Virus genome (UHGV): UHGV-0102822
Origin: a virus
Length of the DNA stretch: 18,997 nt
Direction: 5' to 3' (one strand)
The notes under the pieces were generated by a model, which made no database searches, had not been told where the DNA came from, and saw only the letters and a list, made by a program, of their open reading frames with translations. The position numbers and the translations under genes are program-made. This document shows, in pieces, positions 1,669-18,972 of this stretch. Position 1 is the stretch's first letter. Each line of letters opens with the position of its first letter.

Positions 1669-3606
1669 ATGCTCAAGTTAAAACGAGAATATACAGTCCA
1701 AGACGTTACTGAAACCGATGGCGTTTTTGAAATCGCATTCAGCTCTGAAACTCCTGTTGAGCGTCAGATTGAAGATGAATACGGACATCCAGTTACGGTT
1801 AATGAAATTCTTGTTCATGACGGTCCTCATAATGCAGACCTTACAAGAATTAATAACGGTGCTGCTTTGCTGTTTAATCACGATTTCGATAAACATCTCG
1901 GAAAAGTAATTCCTGGTTCTGTTCGAATTGATTCAGACCGTATCGGTCGCGCAAATGTCCAATTCAGTAAACATGGCTCTTTAGCCCAAGAAGTTTATGA
2001 AAAAGTCAAAGAAGGAACAATCAGCAAGATTTCTTTCGGATATGACTTGAATGAATATGAACTCAAGGGTCAAGACTTATTAGTTACGCTTTGGTCTCCA
2101 TATGAAATAAGTTTTGTAACTGTTCCTGCTGACGATTCCGTGGGGTTGGGAAGATTACTAAATACAAATAACAAAAGCGTTAAGAAATTACGCGAATTAA
2201 ATTTAACTAACAAAGGTACTCGAATGAAACGCATTGATGAAATGACGAAAGACGAACTGGTAGAAATGACCATTGACGAAATCGAAATGCTGTCCGAAGA
2301 AGATCGCGCGAAACGTGAAGAAATTCTGGAAGAAGTAAAAGTCGAAACTGAAAATTCTGGTGATTCTGCTGTTGTCGAAACTGACAATTCTCCTGCTGTT
2401 GTTCCTGCTGGTGATGAATTAACAGAAGAAGAACGCGAAGAAGAAACGGAAGAAATTCTTGAAATCGCACAGCGCTACAAAGTAGCACAAAAAGACGTTG
2501 CAAGCGCAATCGCTAAAGGCATGACCGCACGTCAATTTAAACGTTCTATTAAACCTAACAAAGCTCCGGCGGTAATTCGTAACATGACTAAAGATACTAA
2601 AGTAAATCTGGAAGATAAATTCGACCTTGGCGATGCTGTTCGCTCTATGATGAATGGTAAAGCTGTTCGTGGCGCTGCTGCTGAATATACACAAGAAATG
2701 ACTCGTAAGCGTCTACAACGTGGTCTTAGCGTTTCAACCGGTATCTATATGCCTGTAAATGCTATTGCTCAGAACTCACGCGCAATTAACACTGTTCCTA
2801 CTGTTTCTCCAATTCAGGAAACTGTTCAGCGTTATGATTCATTCGTTGAAATGCTATTGAAAGGTACTGTTGCTGATAAATTGGGTGTTAACTTCCTGAC
2901 TGGTTTGAAAACTCCGATTTCTGTACCAAAACAAACTAAATCTTCTGTTGAAGCATTCGGTTTCGTTGATGAAAACGGTGAATCTCCAGAAGGCGAAAGC
3001 GCATTCACCAACATTAAGTTTGAACCAAAAACATTTACTGGTGGTAACCCAATTTCTCGTCAAGCTCTGTTGACTCTGCCAAATCTGGGCGCTTTCATTT
3101 CTGACCACATTGTTAAGCACTCACGCGCTAAACTGGAAGGTCTGATGTTTGGTTCTCTGACTGATGCTAAAGCACCTGATTCAATCGTTGCTCAGTTGAC
3201 TGCACAGGCAATGGGAATGACCTACAAAGAGTTCATCGTTGAAGCTGCAAAAGCTAAAGGCAATGGCGTTGATATGGCTGCATTTAAATATCTGATGGCT
3301 GCTGCTCTTGAAGGTGATTTGAAAACCACTCTGCGTGATGCTGGTGTTTCTGGTTATATCATCGACGACATGAACAAAATCGGCGGACATGATGTTATCG
3401 GTTCTGGTCTGGTTAAAGATGGTCAGGTTATCTCTGGTGACTTCTCCGCTGTAACTGTAGCTGAATGGGAAGGTCTTGCTCTTGACCTAGACGACACAAC
3501 TTATCGTAACAAAGGCGCTATCGTTCCTCGCGTTTGGGCTGATATCGATTGGAAAGTTTGTGCTGACGATCGTCTGTTCCTGCACGAAAAAAAGACGGGA
3601 GCTTAA
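1669..3606 (+). CDS. prohead protease (HK97 gp4 / peptidase S78-like) fused to an acidic scaffold-like linker and an HK97-fold major capsid protein domain
   Basis: The N-terminal ~165 aa align by eye with HK97 gp4 protease, including the His (LFNHDFD) and Ser (ISKISFGYD) catalytic contexts and the ISFVTVPADD segment. The middle is an acidic helical stretch (EEEREEETEEILEIAQRY). The C-terminal ~370 aa have an HK97-type capsid character (GDFSAVTVAEWEGLALDLDD, DDRLFLHEKK tail). The gene is followed by a strong terminator, as expected for a highly expressed capsid gene. Confidence 0.75.
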   Translation: MLKLKREYTVQDVTETDGVFEIAFSSETPVERQIEDEYGHPVTVNEILVHDGPHNADLTRINNGAALLFNHDFDKHLGKVIPGSVRIDSDRIGRANVQFSKHGSLAQEVYEKVKEGTISKISFGYDLNEYELKGQDLLVTLWSPYEISFVTVPADDSVGLGRLLNTNNKSVKKLRELNLTNKGTRMKRIDEMTKDELVEMTIDEIEMLSEEDRAKREEILEEVKVETENSGDSAVVETDNSPAVVPAGDELTEEEREEETEEILEIAQRYKVAQKDVASAIAKGMTARQFKRSIKPNKAPAVIRNMTKDTKVNLEDKFDLGDAVRSMMNGKAVRGAAAEYTQEMTRKRLQRGLSVSTGIYMPVNAIAQNSRAINTVPTVSPIQETVQRYDSFVEMLLKGTVADKLGVNFLTGLKTPISVPKQTKSSVEAFGFVDENGESPEGESAFTNIKFEPKTFTGGNPISRQALLTLPNLGAFISDHIVKHSRAKLEGLMFGSLTDAKAPDSIVAQLTAQAMGMTYKEFIVEAAKAKGNGVDMAAFKYLMAAALEGDLKTTLRDAGVSGYIIDDMNKIGGHDVIGSGLVKDGQVISGDFSAVTVAEWEGLALDLDDTTYRNKGAIVPRVWADIDWKVCADDRLFLHEKKTGA

Positions 3607-3730: not shown

Positions 3731-4033
3731 ATGCTTTTTCCATACACACAAAAACAAAAACAAGAATTCTTAAAACGATTTGGTCAAACGCTATTAATCG
3801 ATAATAAAGAAACTCTGGCTATTGTCGAAATTGAAATTACTAACGTTGATGGACAAGTATCAGAAACGTTTTATATAACAATTGATGAAGTAATAGCTCG
3901 CCAAGATCTCGAAGTTCATTACAAAGAAAACATCTACCGAATTGCTTATATCGTTAACGATGGTTCAGGACTTGTTAATGCTTATTTGTCTTTAATTGGT
4001 GATAACAGCGGAAGGACTAGCAAATATGAATAA
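3731..4033 (+). CDS. hypothetical virion protein, connector/head-completion candidate by position
   Basis: 100-aa ORF from ATG 3731, preceded by AAAAAGGAGA with 5-nt spacing. The track's 3701 start is a TTG lying inside the promoter/SD region. No recognisable motif; the role is inferred only from position after the capsid gene. Confidence 0.55.
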   Translation: MLFPYTQKQKQEFLKRFGQTLLIDNKETLAIVEIEITNVDGQVSETFYITIDEVIARQDLEVHYKENIYRIAYIVNDGSGLVNAYLSLIGDNSGRTSKYE

Positions 4034-9001: not shown

Positions 9002-9418
9002 ATGTTTAAATTTCAAGCTGACTTATCAAAATTATTAAATCGTTATATCAACAAAGAACACAAATACGGTCAAAACGACTGTAATATCCTTGTCGCTGAA
9101 TATATCGATATGACTTGCGGAACAGATTACGCAAGCAAACTTATTTCCAAATATGACTCTGTTCAATCGGGTTTAAAACACTGCAAAGAACTTACAGGTT
9201 TTAATAACGTTTTAGAAGCTTGTGAAAAGCATTTCGAAAAATCAAACATTATCGAAACAGGGTCAATTGTCTTAATTAAAAAAACATACAGACGCCGAGT
9301 TTATTACGTTGCGTCGATTGTCTTTAACGACAAAGCAATTATTGAACACAACAACAAATACGCTTTGATAAACGTAAAAGATTTTGAATACGAATTAATT
9401 TTTAACAGGAGAAAATAA
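9002..9418 (+). CDS. NlpC/P60-type tail assembly protein (lambda gpK C-terminal domain-like)
   Basis: 138 aa from ATG 9002; the track's GTG 8990 overlaps the SD. Cys-His-His spacing typical of NlpC/P60 (QNDCNILVAEY ... IIEHNNKYALI). Sits directly upstream of the gpJ-like gene, as gpK does in lambda. Confidence 0.55.
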   Translation: MFKFQADLSKLLNRYINKEHKYGQNDCNILVAEYIDMTCGTDYASKLISKYDSVQSGLKHCKELTGFNNVLEACEKHFEKSNIIETGSIVLIKKTYRRRVYYVASIVFNDKAIIEHNNKYALINVKDFEYELIFNRRK

Positions 9419-12400
9419 TGGCTATTGTCGCAATTGGTGCAATCATCGCTGGTGCTTCTGCTGGTCTTGCTGCTTATGCCGCTGGGATGGCATTAGCTAT
9501 TTCAATCGGTATTGGTGTTGCTGTTGCTGCTGTTTCCGCTTTAATGTCAACAGCTATGCAACCAACTGTTCCTCGATTTAATACAAGTGATACCGCAACA
9601 ACATTAGGAACAACGTCTGATCCTTCAACTGTATTACCGATTATCTACGGTGAACAACGCACAGGAACAATTAACGTTTGGGATGCTGTAGGAAATGATA
9701 CGACTTATTTGGTGCAAATTTTTGCAATTGCCGAAGGTGAAGTTGATAGCTTTAAAAACCTTTATATCGATAACAAGCGTATTCTGAATGATGCCGTTTA
9801 TCGTGATGGAATTGTTTCAAGAGGTTCAATCGTTTCTCAATATCAAGACTATGTGCAAGTTGAATTCTCTGTTGGTAAAGAACAAGGTCATCATTTCAAA
9901 CTTGCTGAACAATACTTAGGAAATGACCCAAGTGGCTGGCCTGTTTCTGCTACAGGTAACGGTGTCGCTTCTTGCTGTATCGTAATGCAGAAACGAAATT
10001 CAGACTTACAAAACCAAGCTGATATCCTACAACCTAACAGTCAGGTCGCTGTTGATGTTAGAGGACGTTTGATTACTGACTTAAACACGGGACAAATCGT
10101 TCCATCTCGCAACGGTGCAAGTCAGATTGTCGATTATCTGACGAACGAACGATACGGATTAGGAGTTTCACTTGATAAAATTAACCTTGATAGTTTTAAA
10201 GCTGCTGCAAATTATGCTTTAAGCAATCAACTATTTTCCGATGGTGCAACAGACCCTAACGCAACGTTTAAAGAAAACTTAACTCAGCTTGCAGGTGCTT
10301 TTAACGGAATGATTTTCGAATCATTCGGACAAGTTTATTGCAAAATCGATGGTCCTGATGTTGTTTCATTTGATTTCGATGAAGAAAATATTTCTGCTGG
10401 TTCAGTTTCGTTGAATTCAGGTGGTTCAGAGGAATATTACAATACGCTGAACGTGAAATATCAAGATCCTGCAATCGATTATTCCGAGCAAGTTCTTCGT
10501 TATCCATCTGACGTGACGACCGACAAAACAATTCAATATGATAAACGTATTATCGCGAAAGATGTTAATTATCGTTTTGTGAAATCTAAAGACCAATTGG
10601 ACAAACTTGCTTCAATCGAACGTAACAAATCACTGTTAAAACAGATTATCAGCTTTAGTTCTCCTGATTCCTATACTATTCAAGTTTGGGATGTTATCAG
10701 AGTTAACTTTGATGAATTAAATTTGCAAGATTCGTTATGGCGCGTTACTAACGTTAGTCGTTCAATGAATAAGGGCGTTGCTGGTATCGTTAACATCACA
10801 GCTACTGAATATATTGAAGAAGTTTATACCGATTTAGACTATGCGAAAGATCCTAATAACAACGGTTCAAACGTACCAAACAAAGGATACTTGATTGCTC
10901 CTACGAATCTTAAAGTTTCAAGCGTTTCAGAAACAGCTTTAGGAAGAACTTTTAAAGTTTCATGGAATTCAGAGCAAGATTTTAACCGTTCAGGTTTTTA
11001 TATTCAATATGCAGTTGCAGGAACAAACCAATGGACTCAAGCAGGATTCACATCAGGAAATTCTTACTTGATTATGAACATGGACCCATTGCAGAAATAT
11101 GATATTCGTGTTTGTGCTTCTGGTGTTTTCTATACGTCTGAATGGGTTTATTCAATGAATGTTAACCCTGATGTCGTTTATAATCTGCCTAAAGTTCGTG
11201 GTCTAAGACTTGTTAACTCTGAGTTTAATAACAACGTTACGCAACAAACGCAATTTGAATTTGCATGGGATAATCAGAGTTCAGAGAAATTCGAAGTTGA
11301 CGGCGTTCAACAGACTTTCGAACAAGTATTTCAGTATTACGAAATCAAAATCACTGGACAAAGACCTGTTGTATACAGAACTAAAGATTTGAGCTTCATT
11401 TATGATTTACGAATGAACCAGCAAAACGGTATCAGTCGTGAAATTAAATTTGAAATCACTGCTGTTGGTTATTCAGGTTTAAGATCTGAACCTACTGAAT
11501 TAATCGTAAGAAATAATCAAGCTCCTGCAATAATCGGTTTTACTGCTTCGAATGGTCCTGGATTATTGATGTGTTCTTGGAACGATCCAATGAGTGTTGC
11601 ACCTGATTATTCTGGAACTGTTATTCAAGTTTCAAATAATCCTGAATTCACTGACATTAATCAAGTTCAGTTGAGTTCTAGCCAGTTCATTGAAAACTTC
11701 CCGTTAGTTGACGGTGAATATTATGTTCGAGCTGCATGGTATGACGTTTTCGGACAAGACCAATTAGTTTGGACTGAATCAGTTTATATCAACATGAAAT
11801 GGGATATTCCATGGACAGAAGATATGAAAGACCAGTTAAACGACTTGCTTGATTTAGACCAACGAGTTGATGGTGCTATCGAGGACGCTTTAGAACTCGC
11901 AAATGCTTATACCGATACTCAGATAACATCAACTAAGCAGGAAGTAACAACCGAGATTGATCAGAAGATCAGCACGTCTAATACAACGTTGCATACTCAG
12001 ATAACGAATGAAACGCAAGGCGCTATCAATCAGGCTATTACGATTCAAACGGCTGATTTTGACGGTAAGTTAAACTCTGCTATAACCGAAGTTGAGAAAA
12101 CCCAAGCGGATGATCGTGCTGCAACAGCTTCACAAATCAGCCAATTAAAAGCTGAAACTACGGATATGGTCGCGACTGTTTCTACCGAAGCAAAAGCAAG
12201 CGTTGACGATTTAGCAGGAACTGTTAACAGTAAATGGGCTGTTTCTACAAACGCCGATGGTGTCGTAGCTGGTATTAGTATGTTGGCATCTAAGGACGCT
12301 GCGGGAAATAAAGCCTCAAGCATTATTTTTAACGCTGATAAGATTGCTATAACAAATAATAACACTGCTCCTAATGCTGTTCCACCGTTCATGGTCGCAG

Positions 12401-13098
12401 ATGATAGAGTTTATTTACAAAGCGCGATGATTCGCAATGCTTCGATCGGTAATGCTCAAATTGCTAATGCTGCAATTGATAATGCCAAAATTGCTAATGC
12501 TGCAATTAATAACGCGCAGATTCAAGACGGTGCTATTACAACAGCGAAAATTGGTAATGCTCAAATCGGTTCAGCACAAATTGCCTGGGAAATATCCTCT
12601 GATAACTGGGTTCCTTCCGGTGGTACTCAAGGATGGACAATTAGAAAAGATGGTTGGGCTTCATTCCAAAACGTTACAGTTAAAGGAAATATTCAAGCTG
12701 ATTCTGGTTATTTCTCAGGAGAAATCAGAGGTGGTTCTGGTTATTTCACAGGGACTGTTTACGCTGACAGAATCGAAGGTGACGTTATCAAAATGGGATT
12801 TGTCGATCCGTGGGGATCTGTTCATATTCCTGCTGTTGGTTGGAGAAGAATGATTGCTATTCCTAACGTTGCAATCGCCGGAAGAACTTATTCTGGTGGT
12901 ACTGGTTGGGGTGGTGGCAAAGCGTGGTTAAGACTCTCAAACGGCCAAGAAGTTGTTTACGTTCAATCTCAATCTCTAAACGGTTCAAACGGTGGTGTCG
13001 CATACATCGAAGCGGGACAAGCTGTTGATTTAACTTATACGGTCGAATTAAACCGAGCAGAAGCCTCAAGGGCAGTTTATTTTATCAGTAAAGTTTGA
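9418..13098 (+). CDS. central tail fiber / tip attachment protein (lambda gpJ-like) with a fused hydrophobic Gly/Ala-rich N-terminus
   Basis: 1226 aa. After a ~45-aa hydrophobic stretch comes a gpJ-type N-terminal domain (VLPIIYGEQRTGTINVWDAVGN...LVQIFAIAEGEVDSF), then fibronectin-III-like repeats (APTNLKVSSVSETALGRTFKVSWN...), a coiled region, a 5-residue-period repeat tract and a C-terminal domain. The start ATG overlaps the gpK-like stop (TAATG). Confidence 0.75.
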   Translation: MAIVAIGAIIAGASAGLAAYAAGMALAISIGIGVAVAAVSALMSTAMQPTVPRFNTSDTATTLGTTSDPSTVLPIIYGEQRTGTINVWDAVGNDTTYLVQIFAIAEGEVDSFKNLYIDNKRILNDAVYRDGIVSRGSIVSQYQDYVQVEFSVGKEQGHHFKLAEQYLGNDPSGWPVSATGNGVASCCIVMQKRNSDLQNQADILQPNSQVAVDVRGRLITDLNTGQIVPSRNGASQIVDYLTNERYGLGVSLDKINLDSFKAAANYALSNQLFSDGATDPNATFKENLTQLAGAFNGMIFESFGQVYCKIDGPDVVSFDFDEENISAGSVSLNSGGSEEYYNTLNVKYQDPAIDYSEQVLRYPSDVTTDKTIQYDKRIIAKDVNYRFVKSKDQLDKLASIERNKSLLKQIISFSSPDSYTIQVWDVIRVNFDELNLQDSLWRVTNVSRSMNKGVAGIVNITATEYIEEVYTDLDYAKDPNNNGSNVPNKGYLIAPTNLKVSSVSETALGRTFKVSWNSEQDFNRSGFYIQYAVAGTNQWTQAGFTSGNSYLIMNMDPLQKYDIRVCASGVFYTSEWVYSMNVNPDVVYNLPKVRGLRLVNSEFNNNVTQQTQFEFAWDNQSSEKFEVDGVQQTFEQVFQYYEIKITGQRPVVYRTKDLSFIYDLRMNQQNGISREIKFEITAVGYSGLRSEPTELIVRNNQAPAIIGFTASNGPGLLMCSWNDPMSVAPDYSGTVIQVSNNPEFTDINQVQLSSSQFIENFPLVDGEYYVRAAWYDVFGQDQLVWTESVYINMKWDIPWTEDMKDQLNDLLDLDQRVDGAIEDALELANAYTDTQITSTKQEVTTEIDQKISTSNTTLHTQITNETQGAINQAITIQTADFDGKLNSAITEVEKTQADDRAATASQISQLKAETTDMVATVSTEAKASVDDLAGTVNSKWAVSTNADGVVAGISMLASKDAAGNKASSIIFNADKIAITNNNTAPNAVPPFMVADDRVYLQSAMIRNASIGNAQIANAAIDNAKIANAAINNAQIQDGAITTAKIGNAQIGSAQIAWEISSDNWVPSGGTQGWTIRKDGWASFQNVTVKGNIQADSGYFSGEIRGGSGYFTGTVYADRIEGDVIKMGFVDPWGSVHIPAVGWRRMIAIPNVAIAGRTYSGGTGWGGGKAWLRLSNGQEVVYVQSQSLNGSNGGVAYIEAGQAVDLTYTVELNRAEASRAVYFISKV
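12430..12585 (+). repeat. tandem 15-bp / 5-residue periodic repeat tract inside the gpJ-like gene
   Basis: About nine consecutive pentapeptide units: IGNAQ IANAA IDNAK IANAA INNAQ IQDGA ITTAK IGNAQ IGSAQ. The underlying DNA repeats AATGCTCAAATTGCT / AATGCTGCAATTGAT. Confidence 0.7.
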
Positions 13099-13159: not shown

Positions 13160-13456
13160 ATGGGTGTTGAAGCCATCATTTCTTTCGCGGGACTGCTATG
13201 CGCTGGCTTTGGATGGATTTGGTCTCAAAAGAACGCAATGGAAGCCGACGCTTTAAAAATCGAACAGAGACTATCTGAAATCGAGAAAAGCGTTGCTCTT
13301 AATAGTGCGACCGATTCAAACGCAAATACTGAATTAACCAACGTTCGTGATTCGTTTAAGGAGTTTAAAGGTGATATGAAAAGTATAGACAATCGAATTA
13401 GAGAAATCGAAATTCGATTAGCGGTGATAGACAGTGAAACGAAAAGAAATAAATAA
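13160..13456 (+). CDS. small membrane-anchored coiled-coil protein (N-terminal TM helix plus helical domain)
   Basis: 98 aa. N-terminal hydrophobic segment AIISFAGLLCAGFGWIW, followed by heptad-like charged helical sequence (ALKIEQRLSEIEKS ... IDNRIREIEIRLAVID). The architecture resembles an i-spanin or other signal-anchored periplasmic protein, but function is unassigned. Confidence 0.5.
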   Translation: MGVEAIISFAGLLCAGFGWIWSQKNAMEADALKIEQRLSEIEKSVALNSATDSNANTELTNVRDSFKEFKGDMKSIDNRIREIEIRLAVIDSETKRNK

Positions 13457-13889
13457 TTACAAGAAAACCCTTTTTGATAAACAAAATAAAAGATGTGCTT
13501 TAACTGGGATAGAAATTACCGATGTTAATAAAGCCCATTTAGACCATGACCACGCTCTTGATGGTTCTCAAGCTGGACGATGCCGAGGATTATTACTCGC
13601 ACAGGCAAACGTCCTTGAGGGCAGATTAAAACATCAATTCATGTATTCAGGTTTAGCGAAGCACATCGAATATATTGATTTTTTAAAAAGATTGGTAACT
13701 TATCTCGAAAAAGATAATTCTAAAAATCCTATTCATCCTCAACTTGTAACAGACCTATCAAAGCGCTTTTCGAAAATGACGTTAAAGCAAATGAAAGAGA
13801 CTTTATTAGCAGAGGACATAAATCCAGTTGGTGATAAAAAATCTCTCATTAACTTGTACAAACAAAATTTAAAGGTGAAGTATGATTGA
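13434..13889 (+). CDS. recombination endonuclease VII homolog (T4 gp49-like, His-Me/HNH-type junction resolvase)
   Basis: 151 aa from GTG 13434, overlapping the upstream ORF by 23 nt. Clear similarity to T4 endonuclease VII as I recall it: HLDHDH, AG-x-x-RGLL, N...LEG..KH.F, SGL, and LVTYLEKDNSKNPIHPQLV versus T4 LLTYLKSDYTQNNIHPNFV. Confidence 0.8.
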   Translation: MKRKEINNYKKTLFDKQNKRCALTGIEITDVNKAHLDHDHALDGSQAGRCRGLLLAQANVLEGRLKHQFMYSGLAKHIEYIDFLKRLVTYLEKDNSKNPIHPQLVTDLSKRFSKMTLKQMKETLLAEDINPVGDKKSLINLYKQNLKVKYD

Positions 13890-14094
13890 AAAAATGAAAG
13901 CTGCATTCAAGAAACTTCCAGCAATGACAGGGGACTTTAAAAAGAAATTCATTTACGCGATGATTGCAATGGCTGTTTATAATTACATCGTTGTTCCGTG
14001 TGCATTGAGTTTCTTCGGAATAGTTCTTCCTATCGTTCCTCTTGATGAAGCTATGAAATATATCTTTGCAATTGTTTCATTTGGGAGTATGTAA
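13882..14094 (+). CDS. small hydrophobic membrane protein (holin-like size, possible dual start)
   Basis: 70 aa. N-terminus MIEKMK has two in-frame ATGs (13882 and 13894) separated by a Lys-containing tripeptide. A ~30-residue hydrophobic core (FIYAMIAMAVYNYIVVPCALSFFGIVLPIV) and a short hydrophobic C-terminus. Start overlaps the endo VII stop; AAAGGTGA SD. Confidence 0.45.
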   Translation: MIEKMKAAFKKLPAMTGDFKKKFIYAMIAMAVYNYIVVPCALSFFGIVLPIVPLDEAMKYIFAIVSFGSM

Positions 14095-15731: not shown

Positions 15732-18077
15732 ATGGCGAATTCTCGTTATGATGTTGAGATTCGCGGAGATAATAAAGGACTGTCTACTGCTGTAAAAGAC
15801 TCTATGGACGAACTGAATAAACTTGATTCAGCCGCTCAGGGTCTTTTTAGTAATTTCACAGGTCCACTAAATGGTCTCAGCGATGGTCTCAGCACGATTC
15901 AAAGTATGTCCCCTGCGTTACGCGCATTGGGTGCAGCGGGGTTAGTTGCAGGTGCTGGTTTTGCTGCAATTAATAAAGCTGCTGAAACTGTTAACGTATT
16001 AAATCAGGTTAACACAACAACTGGCGTTTCTATTGAAATGCTTCAACAGTTGCAATCAACGTTCAAAGCTACCGGAATGGACGTTGAGAAATTCGGTGAT
16101 TTAAACAAAGACGCAATGGATAAACTCGGTGATTCTTTGAGAGCTGGCGGTGGTGGTATTGCCGACGACTTAGAAGAATGGGGTTTAAAACTTGAAGATT
16201 ATGCAAAATATGCTGGTGATGCCGAAGGTGGTATTAAAGCATTAATCGACACGTTCTATCAATTAAGAGCCGCTGGTAAATCATCTGCTGAAATTACTAA
16301 CGCAATGGAATCAATGGCGTCTGATGGTTCTCATTTGATTTCAACATTACAGAATTTTTCTAATACCCAAGACGCATTAAACGCAATTCAAGGTCAAACA
16401 GTTTCAATTACTCAAGACGTTGCCGACGAATTCAAAGAATATGAAAGAAACATGAATTCTTTGAAGAAAGCAACTAATGAATTCACGGTCGAAGCTGCTA
16501 GTCCATTAGTTCGTGAATTTAACAATCTTTATGAGTGGATGGATGGTATTGATTGGAGTGAAACGTCTTTTGCGAAATGGCTAAGAGAGAATAACAAAAA
16601 GGGTATAACTCCTTCTGGTATGTCCTCTGGTCAAGTGCAGAATATCGGAAAGTCTGTTGAAGCAATCGAAATTGAAAAGCGTCAGGCGTTTATTGCAGAA
16701 AATGCCAAGTTGCTTAAAAAACAAGTTAATCAGCTAGTTCGTTTAGCTGAACAAGAAACGATGGCAAATAAGGCTCGCCAGAAAGTCTTAGAAGAAAAAG
16801 CGAAGAAAGAAAAAGACGCTGCTGATAAAGCTGAACGTGAAAGAAAATCTGCTGCTGATAAAGCCGAAAGGGAACGTAAAGCTGCAATGGCTAAAGCCAA
16901 AGCTGATTATGACAAAATGATGGCTGATCGTGCTCAGGCAGTTGAATCTCTGAAACAGTTAGACGTTGCGGTTATTGCTCAAGAAGGACGTTCATATGCT
17001 TCTCAGATTAATCAGACTCAGCAAGCACTAACAAAGCTTCAAGAACTAAGAGACAAAGGGATAATCTCACAGGAGCAATTCCTAGAACGTCGTAATTCTC
17101 TATTGATTAACTCGTCAAAAGAATTCTCCGACAGTCTTAAGGCTAATCCTGCTGACATTGGCATTATCACTCAGTCGATGAATCAAATGTTCGATATTCA
17201 AAAGCAAGAACTGGATATTAAACGTCAACAGAACTTGATTTCAGAACAGCAATACAACGAACAGTTAGAGAATCTCCAAATTGCACATCAAGAGAAGATG
17301 AAAGCAATTAAAGAGATTGATGCTAATCAGGTGAATATGCAGAACTTGAATTCAATTGGTTTCGCAACTGATGAAGAAAGAATGGCATTAGAGCAAGAAG
17401 CATTAAATCAACAGTTCGAAAGGTTCAGAGAACAGAATCAGAAAATGTACGAATCTGGACTTTTGTCGCATGAACAATTTTTAGAGCAAAAAAGACGACT
17501 AGACAAGGCTTATTCTGTTCAGTCTGAAAATATTGCTATGATGGAAATTCAAACGAAAATGGGAATGTATAACGGTTTTGCTCAAGGCATGGCTGGTGTT
17601 ATTTCCGGTATTTCGGGTGAAAACTCTAAAGCCGCTCAAGCTGCGTTTGCAGTAGCTAAAGGAACAGCTATCGCAAATGGTATGTTAAACGCATATCAAT
17701 CTGCAACTAAAGCAATGGCAACTTATCCTGGTCCTTTGGGATACGCATTAGCCGCATCAAGTTATGCGCAAGTTTTAGGACAAGTTATGTCCATGAAATC
17801 TGTGAATATGACTGGTATGGCTCACGATGGCATTTCTGAAATTCCAAGAGAAGGAACATGGCTGCTTGATGGTGGTGAAAGAGTCGTTGATCAGAGAACT
17901 AACGGAGATTTGAAAGACTTCTTGAATAATCAAAGCGAGTCTAAGACTCAGCCTATTGATGCTCGTGTAATCGTACAAGGAAACGTGACTGATCAGCGTT
18001 GGTTTGCTGAACAACTCAAGAAGCAAGAAAAGATTATCACATCAATTGTTCAATCAGGAAACAGACGCAAAATGTAA
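15732..18077 (+). CDS. tail tape measure protein
   Basis: 781 aa. Long predicted helical, charged coiled-coil central region with an internal tandem repeat (AADKAERERK x2), and a Gly/Ala-rich hydrophobic segment near the C-terminus (AQAAFAVAKGTAIANGMLNAYQSATKAMATYPGPLGYALAASSYAQVLG). Preceded by the chaperone pair. Confidence 0.8.
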   Translation: MANSRYDVEIRGDNKGLSTAVKDSMDELNKLDSAAQGLFSNFTGPLNGLSDGLSTIQSMSPALRALGAAGLVAGAGFAAINKAAETVNVLNQVNTTTGVSIEMLQQLQSTFKATGMDVEKFGDLNKDAMDKLGDSLRAGGGGIADDLEEWGLKLEDYAKYAGDAEGGIKALIDTFYQLRAAGKSSAEITNAMESMASDGSHLISTLQNFSNTQDALNAIQGQTVSITQDVADEFKEYERNMNSLKKATNEFTVEAASPLVREFNNLYEWMDGIDWSETSFAKWLRENNKKGITPSGMSSGQVQNIGKSVEAIEIEKRQAFIAENAKLLKKQVNQLVRLAEQETMANKARQKVLEEKAKKEKDAADKAERERKSAADKAERERKAAMAKAKADYDKMMADRAQAVESLKQLDVAVIAQEGRSYASQINQTQQALTKLQELRDKGIISQEQFLERRNSLLINSSKEFSDSLKANPADIGIITQSMNQMFDIQKQELDIKRQQNLISEQQYNEQLENLQIAHQEKMKAIKEIDANQVNMQNLNSIGFATDEERMALEQEALNQQFERFREQNQKMYESGLLSHEQFLEQKRRLDKAYSVQSENIAMMEIQTKMGMYNGFAQGMAGVISGISGENSKAAQAAFAVAKGTAIANGMLNAYQSATKAMATYPGPLGYALAASSYAQVLGQVMSMKSVNMTGMAHDGISEIPREGTWLLDGGERVVDQRTNGDLKDFLNNQSESKTQPIDARVIVQGNVTDQRWFAEQLKKQEKIITSIVQSGNRRKM
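16818..16883 (+). repeat. imperfect 33-bp tandem duplication inside the tape measure gene
   Basis: GCTGCTGATAAAGCTGAACGTGAAAGAAAATCT followed by GCTGCTGATAAAGCCGAAAGGGAACGTAAAGCT, encoding AADKAERERKS / AADKAERERKA. The Arg codons are swapped between synonymous forms. Confidence 0.7.
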
Positions 18078-18147: not shown

Positions 18148-18504
18148 CTAAAGCACAGCCTGAAAACTTTGCCACTCAGGTGCATGCATAAGTACCGCGC
18201 TTTGTTCATTTCTATTCCAAATAGGAATCGCTTTCCCTATATAGAAAAAATGTGATGTTGCATCATTACTTTTCTTTTCACTACTTTTTCCTGCTTTTGT
18301 ATATACGACAACAAGATCGCCAGCGCGAACAGGTTTATCCGGAAACCAAAATGTTTCGTAAATACCAGTGTTTACCGACTCATTCTCAAATCCCGTTTGT
18401 AGCAGTATAAACTCTCCAATATTGCATGAACTGTCAACTCGAATGACAATTCGTTCCTTATCTAAGTTTCCAGGTTCGCGAATTGCTGTAATATTAACTT
18501 TCAT
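18148..18504 (-). CDS. hypothetical small soluble protein, second gene of the minus-strand cassette
   Basis: 118 aa. Its ATG overlaps the stop of the upstream membrane-protein gene by 4 bp, suggesting translational coupling. No recognisable motif. Confidence 0.55.
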   Translation of the reverse strand: MKVNITAIREPGNLDKERIVIRVDSSCNIGEFILLQTGFENESVNTGIYETFWFPDKPVRAGDLVVVYTKAGKSSEKKSNDATSHFFYIGKAIPIWNRNEQSAVLMHAPEWQSFQAVL

Positions 18505-18947
18505 GGCTTGACCACCTTTGCAGCTATCCCCCCGACAGTGAGCACACTACCAAAAGCTAACGCGAGCACAGCGGCAGTCGGCTGAGTTGACCAGTTTGAA
18601 GTGGCATATCCAAAGGCAGAGCCTGAAATTAGAAAACATGTCACATGCATTATTTCCAAAGCAATTTTTGTTTTGAATTTTTCTTCTAATACTCCTACAA
18701 GTTTATCGGATGTATGAAACTTATCGCGAATCACACGCAAATCATTGCATTCACCATCTAATCTTTCAATCTCATCAAGCAACATTCGTTGTACCGCAGC
18801 AGAGCTAAGCTCCTCATCAGTTAGCTCTCTGCGAAGATTTGAGAATGATTTGCGTCCAGAATTCCCCTTGGGAACAGCTGTTGGTATCCCCACACTTACA
18901 GGCTCTTCTGGTTCCGTATCAGGTTGATGCCTATTCCCAAAAACCAC
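18501..18947 (-). CDS. hypothetical membrane protein (cytoplasmic helical N-domain plus two C-terminal TM helices), first gene of the minus-strand cassette
   Basis: Probable GTG start at 18947, 6 nt after a perfect AAGGAG; the track's TTG 18971 lies upstream of that SD. C-terminal hydrophobic helices IALEIMHVTCFLISGSAFGYA and TAAVLALAFGSVLTVGGIAAKVV. Uses GC-ending codons (ccg, gcg, gcc, cag, ctc, ggg) that are unusual for the phage late genes. Confidence 0.55.
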   Translation of the reverse strand: MVFGNRHQPDTEPEEPVSVGIPTAVPKGNSGRKSFSNLRRELTDEELSSAAVQRMLLDEIERLDGECNDLRVIRDKFHTSDKLVGVLEEKFKTKIALEIMHVTCFLISGSAFGYATSNWSTQPTAAVLALAFGSVLTVGGIAAKVVKP

Positions 18948-18972
18948 GAAATGCTCCTTTCGTATATTCAAA

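Follow-up and report, generated by a model that had tools for sequence, protein, structure and literature searches.

A small membrane protein of PHROG 2024, encoded among the tail genes of an Escherichia coli prophage, is a candidate minimal holin

Is a 70-amino-acid membrane protein encoded in the middle of a phage tail gene block a holin, and do its two closely spaced start codons matter? The question is raised by the virus genome UHGV-0102822, whose whole stretch of 18,997 nucleotides is referred to here as the window, and by one open reading frame (ORF) in it that a first-pass annotation had described as holin-like and possibly translated from two starts. We find that this ORF is neither an artefact nor a textbook holin; it encodes a member of a known, uncharacterised protein family, PHROG 2024. 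The second ATG has no role, and the pairing of early ATGs is a coincidence. The best-supported reading, which stays tentative, is that the product is a minimal holin-like membrane protein belonging to the lysis system of the prophage. The features that define the gene are as follows.

13882..14094, + strand: coding sequence (CDS) of the small membrane protein, 70 amino acids, MIEKMKAAFKKLPAMTGDFKKKFIYAMIAMAVYNYIVVPCALSFFGIVLPIVPLDEAMKYIFAIVSFGSM; a PHROG 2024 member.
13872-13878, + strand: Shine-Dalgarno sequence AAGGTGA, read from the sequence, with a 3-nucleotide gap to the ATG at 13882.

The ORF is a real gene under purifying selection. Its ratio of nonsynonymous to synonymous substitution rates (dN/dS) is about 0.09 (0.086 when compared with the E. 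coli PSS-15 copy, 0.098 with one that is 70% identical), and the proposition that it is not a gene was rejected on this ratio together with conserved synteny. The first-pass annotation was right about the ORF; its start coordinate, 13871, falls one base upstream of the Shine-Dalgarno sequence, and the CDS starts at 13882. The 5' end of the CDS overlaps the 3' end of a T4 gp49-type endonuclease VII (EndoVII) gene by 8 nucleotides, and its TAA stop codon shares its final base with the ATG of the gene that follows, at 14094. The gene overlaps both neighbours within the tail block in this way, and no internal promoter or terminator signal rises above background. Homologous prophages share the same AAAGGTGAAxT-ATG arrangement, with the Shine-Dalgarno sequence ahead of the first ATG in all copies. 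A search for near-identical DNA among phage records gave no match, and a PADLOC defence scan gave no hit.

The shape of the protein was derived from hydropathy, charge, alignments and an AlphaFold2 model.

13885..13947, + strand: N-terminal segment, residues 2-22; net charge +5, predicted cytoplasmic, with an amphipathic helix at residues 2-10 and a KKK anchor at residues 20-22.
13948..14016, + strand: transmembrane (TM) helix, residues 23-45, from hydropathy, alignments and the AlphaFold2 helix at 17-45 (predicted local distance difference test, pLDDT, 82-91).
14017..14040, + strand: Pro-rich loop G-[IV]-x-L-P-x-[VI]-P, residues 46-53; non-helical in the AlphaFold2 model and predicted periplasmic.
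14041..14091, + strand: short C-terminal hydrophobic helix, residues 54-70 (AlphaFold2 helix 54-67), too short for a full bilayer span.

Hydropathy bears out the first-pass description: residues 23-52 make up the long hydrophobic stretch, and 57-70 the short hydrophobic tail at the C-terminus. The AlphaFold2 model (mean pLDDT 77) has helices at residues 2-10, 17-45 and 54-67 and a loop at 46-53. The protein is small and has at least one TM domain, as a holin should: 70 amino acids, with the hydrophobic core at 23-52 and the modelled helix at 17-45. These features recur across the family, for which 25 members were compared. The flank N-terminal to the TM helix is positive or neutral in every member and at least +1 in 23 of the 25. 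The helix carries the motif [WY]-N-[YF]-x-x-x-P, the Pro-rich loop is followed by L-[DE], and N34, P39, G46 and P50 are near-invariant. The C-terminal tail (PLDEAMKYIFAIVSFGSM in the window protein) is largely hydrophobic with a net charge of -1, and in the 25 members this tail has 12-19 amino acids and a charge of -2 to 0. The model and the charge pattern together suggest an N-in topology with one TM helix bearing a buried Asn, a periplasmic Pro-rich loop and a C-terminal helix that does not cross the membrane.

With this topology in hand, the two start codons can be considered.

13894..13896, + strand: second in-frame ATG (Met5), read as a hydrophobic residue of the amphipathic helix and not as a start.

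The proposal had been that the protein is a class I or II holin whose starts at Met1 and Met5 yield two products, antiholin and holin, set apart by a positive charge at the N-terminus. The codons themselves are present as described: the ATGs at 13882 and 13894 are in frame and 12 nucleotides apart, Lys4 lies between them, and a few homologues likewise begin MKMK, MKKM or MVQKLM. The classical dual-start proteins, lambda S105/S107 and phage 21 S68/S71, are comparably small membrane proteins that likewise have two in-frame Met codons close to the N-terminus. In those proteins, to which the window protein has no sequence similarity, the extension adds positive charge beside an N-terminal TM domain and alters its topology, whereas here the extension brings no net charge, a cytoplasmic segment of 22 residues and charge +5 forms the N-terminus, and the second Met is unconserved. 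Of residues 1-4 (MIEK), one is acidic and one basic, for a net charge of 0, and by charge count residues 1-22 and 5-22 are each net +5; the two putative products would therefore not differ in charge, and the +5 N-terminus sets both of them in the N-in orientation. Since the N-terminus is a cytoplasmic segment and not the edge of an N-terminal TM domain, added charge would have no topology to switch. Met5 is replaced by Leu in the 70%-identical homologue and by Leu or Ile in most of the others, because it lies on the hydrophobic face of the amphipathic helix. From the frequency of Met in the family, 5.9 of 25 representatives would be expected to have a second Met at positions 2-9, and 6 do. The Shine-Dalgarno sequence is spaced for the first ATG; the second lies about 15 nucleotides downstream of it and has none of its own. 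The dual-start claim fails on each of these tests, and we regard it as very improbable. The MKMK and MKKM subfamilies do look more like lambda S and phage 21 S, yet they share the Lys-rich cytoplasmic N-terminus. One homologue, 65 amino acids long (MKMKYLQALAKHAK...; 20436-20635 of locus L011), begins Met-Lys-Met in a lambda-S-like manner and is left unannotated by PGAP in six complete E. coli genomes. The failed claim carries a caution of its own, as two early Met residues will be found by chance in about a quarter of such small membrane proteins.

If the two starts do not mark the protein as a holin, its relatives might. The window protein matches phrog_2024 with an E value of 4.4e-10, residues 7-65 aligning with profile positions 3-62 of 65, and 24 of 25 relatives match the same profile. 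The function of PHROG 2024 is annotated as unknown (PHROGs). When 1.8 billion representatives were searched exhaustively by HMMER, a profile built from 19 sequences returned just 20 proteins at E<=1e-3; the family is therefore narrow, and no annotated relatives were gained. Its members are spread over T4-like phages and a set of enterobacterial prophages, and are listed as hypothetical in nearly all sources. One UniProt entry is named 'Holin', a name unsupported by evidence; it was among the family members that were the only proteins returned when the AlphaFold2 model was searched against BFVD with Foldseek.

Signals of a holin core were found below the usual thresholds. Among the 25 members, three match PF11351 (GTA_holin_3TM) at 14-15 bits (best E 0.03; the gathering cutoff of this family is 24.8 bits), four match phrog_3427 'holin' (best E 5e-4) and two match phrog_11161 'holin', all sub-threshold. 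Where members were examined individually, the PF11351 and phrog_3427 matches fell in the C-terminal part of the profiles. Pfam and NCBIfam scans of the window protein and 24 relatives found no T4 holin T or other holin family beyond the weak PF11351 matches. Using one member as a tblastn query, we recovered a 'GTA-like holin' of Pseudanabaena phage Pan1 and the C-terminus of a 170-amino-acid protein of Rhodobacter phage RC1 that is encoded directly after the endolysin. Alignment of the family to the RC1 protein with hhalign gave a probability of 94% (E 1e-7). Against an alignment of seven proteins (from RC1, RcWaterboi, StopSmel, POI1126, phiM5, OH and Atu_ph08) the probability was 93.5% (E 2e-7, score 41.8, 48 columns). 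All seven are encoded immediately downstream of a lysozyme, and two of the seven are annotated as holins. As controls, the reversed alignment scored 9.6 and the best of 180 column shuffles, which included local shuffles preserving the hydrophobicity profile, scored 31.7. The PF11351-like proteins of RC1, RcapMu, RcWaterboi, phiM5 and Atu_ph08 share the motifs WRxG..LWN.II and LPP.P.D with the window protein, whose Pro-rich loop aligns with LPPMPFD of the RC1-type proteins. The RC1 protein itself matches PF11351 with an E value of 5e-5 (24.2 bits).

By these alignments, and with the controls negative, the core of the window protein is a remote homologue of the final two hydrophobic segments in PF11351-like holin candidates encoded next to endolysins. 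This link between PHROG 2024 and a PF11351-type holin core is not recorded as far as the databases and papers searched show. For PF11351 there is experimental evidence. We take rcc00556 to be a PF11351 protein because of what the Pfam family is called. In RcGTA, lysis and release need the endolysin-holin locus rcc00555-rcc00556 (PMC5026251). TeaA of phage ICP1, a PF11351 protein, collapses the proton motive force and is triggered by dinitrophenol (DNP) (PMC7182436).

The second line of evidence is the gene neighbourhood. Two genes upstream of the window CDS recur with it.

13160..13456, + strand: partner gene, 98 amino acids; Gly/Ala-rich TM segment at the N-terminus plus a coiled coil; candidate for a second membrane protein of the lysis system.
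13434..13889, + strand: T4 gp49-type EndoVII gene, with PF02945 and PF09124 (dimerisation domain); matches phrog_423 at E 4e-35.

The resulting module occurs in two forms. In the first, a TM/coiled-coil protein of about 95-100 amino acids is followed by EndoVII and then by the small TM protein; this order is found in the window and in loci L004, L007, L011, L012, L020, L023 and L033. In the second, the TM/coiled-coil gene is followed by a T4 e-type lysozyme gene on the opposite strand, a GIY-YIG SegE-like nuclease gene and the small TM gene; the late genes end with this arrangement in L013, L016 and L017. The distance from the small TM homologue to the Phage_lysozyme gene is 0.5 kb in those three loci and 1.5 kb in L019, where the lysozyme lies upstream. 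A TM/coiled-coil architecture is found upstream of the small TM gene in L004, L011, L012, L020, L023, L033, L013, L016 and L019. These conserved contexts mean that the small protein is persistently accompanied by a second membrane protein and, in three lineages, also by an endolysin. The module mostly sits just after tail-tip or fibre genes, which is a common location for lysis genes.

The same module supports two other readings. One is that the small protein is a lysis accessory, a truncated relative of the holin core that tunes another hole-former through the Asn face of its TM helix, as an antiholin, co-holin or timing factor. We consider this possible but rather unlikely. The hole-former could be the TM/coiled-coil protein in the prophages, or holin T in the T4-like phages. 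Such a role would fit the constant pairing with a TM/coiled-coil protein of about 100 amino acids at nine loci, and the lack of the charged C-tail and N-terminal domain that full-length relatives possess. The TM/coiled-coil proteins also weakly match XhlA, BhlA and DUF2730, the family of the Mu releasin (PMC9239132). All of these matches are sub-threshold and mixed with generic coiled-coil noise, and this counts against the reading. For DUF2730 the E value is 1e-4 for the L019 homologue and 0.064 for the 98-amino-acid protein of the window. Mu gp25, the releasin, has an N-terminal TM anchor followed by a coiled coil and is encoded in a lysis context (PMC9239132). The window's partner protein (not the small protein itself) resembles gp25 in that architecture and in context, and differs in that its DUF2730 matches lie below the Pfam cutoff and that the lysozyme of the prophage has no signal-anchor-release (SAR) domain on which a releasin could act. 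Assignment of the partner as a Mu-type releasin, i-spanin, XhlA or BhlA was rejected on the same sub-threshold matches and noise. Matches to Rz-like families were sub-threshold as well, and the partner may be a holin, a releasin-like or a spanin-like protein. No ORF for an o-spanin lipoprotein was found overlapping the TM/coiled-coil gene. The 98-amino-acid protein of the window and the 95-amino-acid protein of L013 have the same architecture and no BLASTP similarity.

Two further features of the module were noted. A GIY-YIG SegE-like gene occupies the EndoVII position and overlaps the small TM gene in L013 (7567-8004) and L016 (5507-6004), and the alternation of EndoVII and GIY-YIG genes looks like mobile nuclease genes being swapped at one site. 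An extra ORF of 40-53 amino acids with two short hydrophobic segments precedes the TM/coiled-coil gene in L013 (6580-6702) and L016 (4565-4726); it is possibly another lysis membrane component of the lysozyme-containing modules.

Where, then, is the endolysin that a holin of this prophage would serve? An E. coli prophage of about 34 kb has inserted between ybiT and ldtB, and the window covers its right half. Genes in the window run in the order portal, a protease/major-capsid fusion, fibres, tail tube, a DUF6950 protein, a 1226-amino-acid tail-tip protein, the 98-amino-acid TM/coiled-coil protein, EndoVII, the small membrane protein, a minor tail protein, a tail assembly chaperone, a lambda gpT-like minor tail protein ('T', from a sub-threshold Phage_tail_T match) and the tape measure, followed by the prophage end. 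No endolysin is encoded in the window according to its ORFs and to PHROG and Pfam scans, in line with the first-pass observation that none was recognisable next to the ORF. The 85%-identical prophage of E. coli PSS-15 supplies one: a T4 e-like lysozyme encoded at the opposite prophage end, near the large serine recombinase. This lysozyme has no SAR domain and no membrane protein is encoded beside it; in the PSS-15 prophage no other protein matches a lysis PHROG and PHROGs offer no other holin candidate. The earlier suggestion that the lysis genes are dispersed was therefore correct, the relative having a soluble lysozyme at one end, the small membrane protein elsewhere and no other recognisable holin.

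The T4-like members of the family have another setting. There the gene stands alone, flanked by gene 61 on one side and by gene 56 or dam on the other, and is read from the opposite strand to these early genes. In T4 itself it lies at 17738-17938 on the + strand (3739-3939 of locus L003), between dam and gene 61, and encodes 66 amino acids; it is unannotated in NC_000866 and is nonetheless called in most T4-like genomes. The sequence GATAAATA stands 29 nucleotides upstream of it, and its Shine-Dalgarno sequence is AAAGGAGG. In four of six T4-like copies an xATAAATA element that agrees with the T4 late-promoter consensus TATAAATA at 7 of 8 positions is found at -26 to -30, and a strong Shine-Dalgarno sequence is present in all six copies examined. 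The T4-like proteins have the same length class as the window protein, a basic N-terminus, a TM helix with W/Y-N-F/Y...P, a G-x-x-L/I-P-x-V-P-L-D/E loop and a short hydrophobic C-terminus, at an identity of just 25-40%. The settings differ: the T4-like ORF lies in a replication-gene region with a late-promoter-like sequence, whereas the window gene is translationally coupled in a siphovirus-type tail block behind EndoVII.

Lysis by T4-like phages depends entirely on holin T, and mutants in t fail to lyse. That a family member is carried by phages with such a dependence means that the T4 member is not a sufficient holin, that the family cannot simply be 'the holin' everywhere and that it may serve some other function; this is the main argument against a holin function for the window protein, and several observations nearer to home also weigh against it. 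The window protein itself has no Pfam holin hit, and the RC1-type family falls 0.6 bit under the PF11351 cutoff. RC1-type proteins are about 170 amino acids long and endolysin-adjacent, with an N-terminal domain and a charged GGHT-K tail. The window protein shares only the 48-column core (last TM segment, loop and last helix) and ends where the GGHT-K tail begins; the N-terminal two-thirds and the tail of the PF11351-like proteins are missing. The full PF11351 architecture, with its N-terminal domain, further hydrophobic segment(s) and charged C-tail in about 120-180 amino acids, is thus absent. The hydrophilic, charged C-terminal domain typical of class I and II holins is likewise absent in all 25 members. 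ICP1 ORF137 (probable TeaA) showed no similarity to the family by hhalign, so the link to an experimentally tested holin runs through the Pfam family alone. Finally, the endolysin is not adjacent to the gene in this type of prophage.

The dependence of T4 on holin T keeps two alternatives alive. The lysis-accessory reading draws on it directly, as the family is kept in T4-like phages that already have holin T, and the late-promoter-like sequences upstream of the T4-like copies point the same way. A TM/coiled-coil partner was not identified in the T4-like phages, which speaks against that reading. The second alternative is a small inner-membrane protein with no part in lysis, serving in superinfection exclusion or host modulation, or a membrane factor that travels with mobile nuclease genes. 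HK97 gp15 is a comparable exclusion or host-modulating factor in a tail operon, and T4 lysis is accounted for genetically without the PHROG 2024 ORF. The window gene lies inside the tail module with a minor-tail gene immediately after it, and not beside an endolysin. In the prophages the small TM gene is always directly downstream of a nuclease gene, either EndoVII or GIY-YIG SegE-like, and usually overlaps it. The unknown listed function of PHROG 2024 is compatible with such a role. It accords poorly, however, with a homology to endolysin-adjacent, holin-like proteins that exceeds all 180 shuffles, and with the lysozyme genes near homologues in three other lineages. An exclusion gene would need expression in the prophage state, and the translational coupling and absent promoter signal speak against that; nor did PADLOC return a hit. 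We judge a role outside lysis to be unlikely.

On this evidence the first-pass term 'holin-like' is kept with a restriction. It is borne out by the remote homology to the PF11351 core, by sub-threshold holin matches, by homologues near T4 e-type lysozymes and by a PSS-15 lysozyme that has no other holin; it does not extend to the charged C-tail of class I and II holins, and carriers among the T4-like phages already depend on holin T. The comparison with holin profiles that the first-pass annotation had suggested came out similarly divided, with relatives matching below threshold and the family profile aligning at 93.5-94% to the RC1-type core, and with no Pfam holin match for the window protein itself.

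The gene itself, its family membership, the conserved module, the N-in charge pattern and the remote homology are shown by the analysis, whereas hole formation, timing and partnership are inferences. Read as a holin-like component, the protein probably makes up all or part of the gate that lets the soluble T4 e-type lysozyme out. It would be translated from the ATG at 13882 along with the late tail genes. Its place in a translationally coupled block of late genes, shortly behind the tail-tip gene, and the late-promoter-like sequences of the T4-like copies are consistent with late synthesis. The Lys-rich amphipathic N-terminus would be kept in the cytoplasm, and the single TM helix, with its near-invariant Asn and Pro buried, would lead into the Pro-rich periplasmic loop, after which the short C-terminal helix is predicted to fold back into the outer leaflet. 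The protein would build up in the inner membrane and oligomerise through its polar Asn face, possibly in cooperation with the conserved TM/coiled-coil protein encoded two genes upstream. Once the membrane was permeabilised, the soluble lysozyme, encoded at the other prophage end, would gain the cell wall.

A wider proposal is possible, and we advance it as doubtful: PHROG 2024 may be an unrecognised class of minimal holin core, consisting of one TM helix and a re-entrant helix without a charged tail. In the prophages it would form a two-part gate with the TM/coiled-coil partner for the T4 e-type lysozyme, and the member carried by T4 and its relatives would supply a late membrane component so far missing from lysis control. 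Were the holin-core reading true, a function-unknown family present in hundreds of T4-like genomes, the unannotated T4 ORF included, would gain a testable role. It would add a previously unnoticed membrane player to T4-type lysis, show how small holin relatives can get and name the missing gate for a soluble lysozyme in this prophage family.

Several observations concern the rest of the prophage. The attachment site splits the tail genes (window 15732-18077; 28911-30124 of locus L008): the late genes finish with the tape measure at the right prophage end, adjoining ldtB, and the left end holds, on the other strand, the genes for the distal tail protein and another tail protein, next to those for the serine recombinase and the lysozyme. 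The 1226-amino-acid tail-tip protein (J-like, Phage_Tail_Tip; window 9418-13098, + strand) begins with about 45 hydrophobic residues rich in Gly, Ala and Ile (MAIVAIGAIIAGASAGLAAYAAGMALAISIGIGVAVAAVSALMS), an N-terminus that is unusual for a central tail fibre and is kept in the relatives L007 and L013. A 645-amino-acid ORF (window 1669-3606, + strand) fuses an HK97-type prohead protease to the major capsid protein.

In E. coli 2021CK-01361 (NZ_CP107720.1; L011 1-137) the ybiT/ldtB prophage carries a reverse transcriptase/endonuclease of the retron Ec67 family and is disrupted by copies of ISEc68. A literature search on an Ec67-associated prophage returned nothing useful. Given the Ec67-family retron in a prophage at the same site, the ybiT/ldtB prophage family may be the historical Ec67-bearing element. 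At the prophage end in the window, two overlapping ORFs lie on the reverse strand, at 18148-18504 (-; 118 amino acids) and 18501-18971 (-; 156 amino acids). Neither matches Pfam, PHROG or PADLOC. The 156-amino-acid product has a C-terminal TM region, and both ORFs may be cargo expressed in the lysogen.

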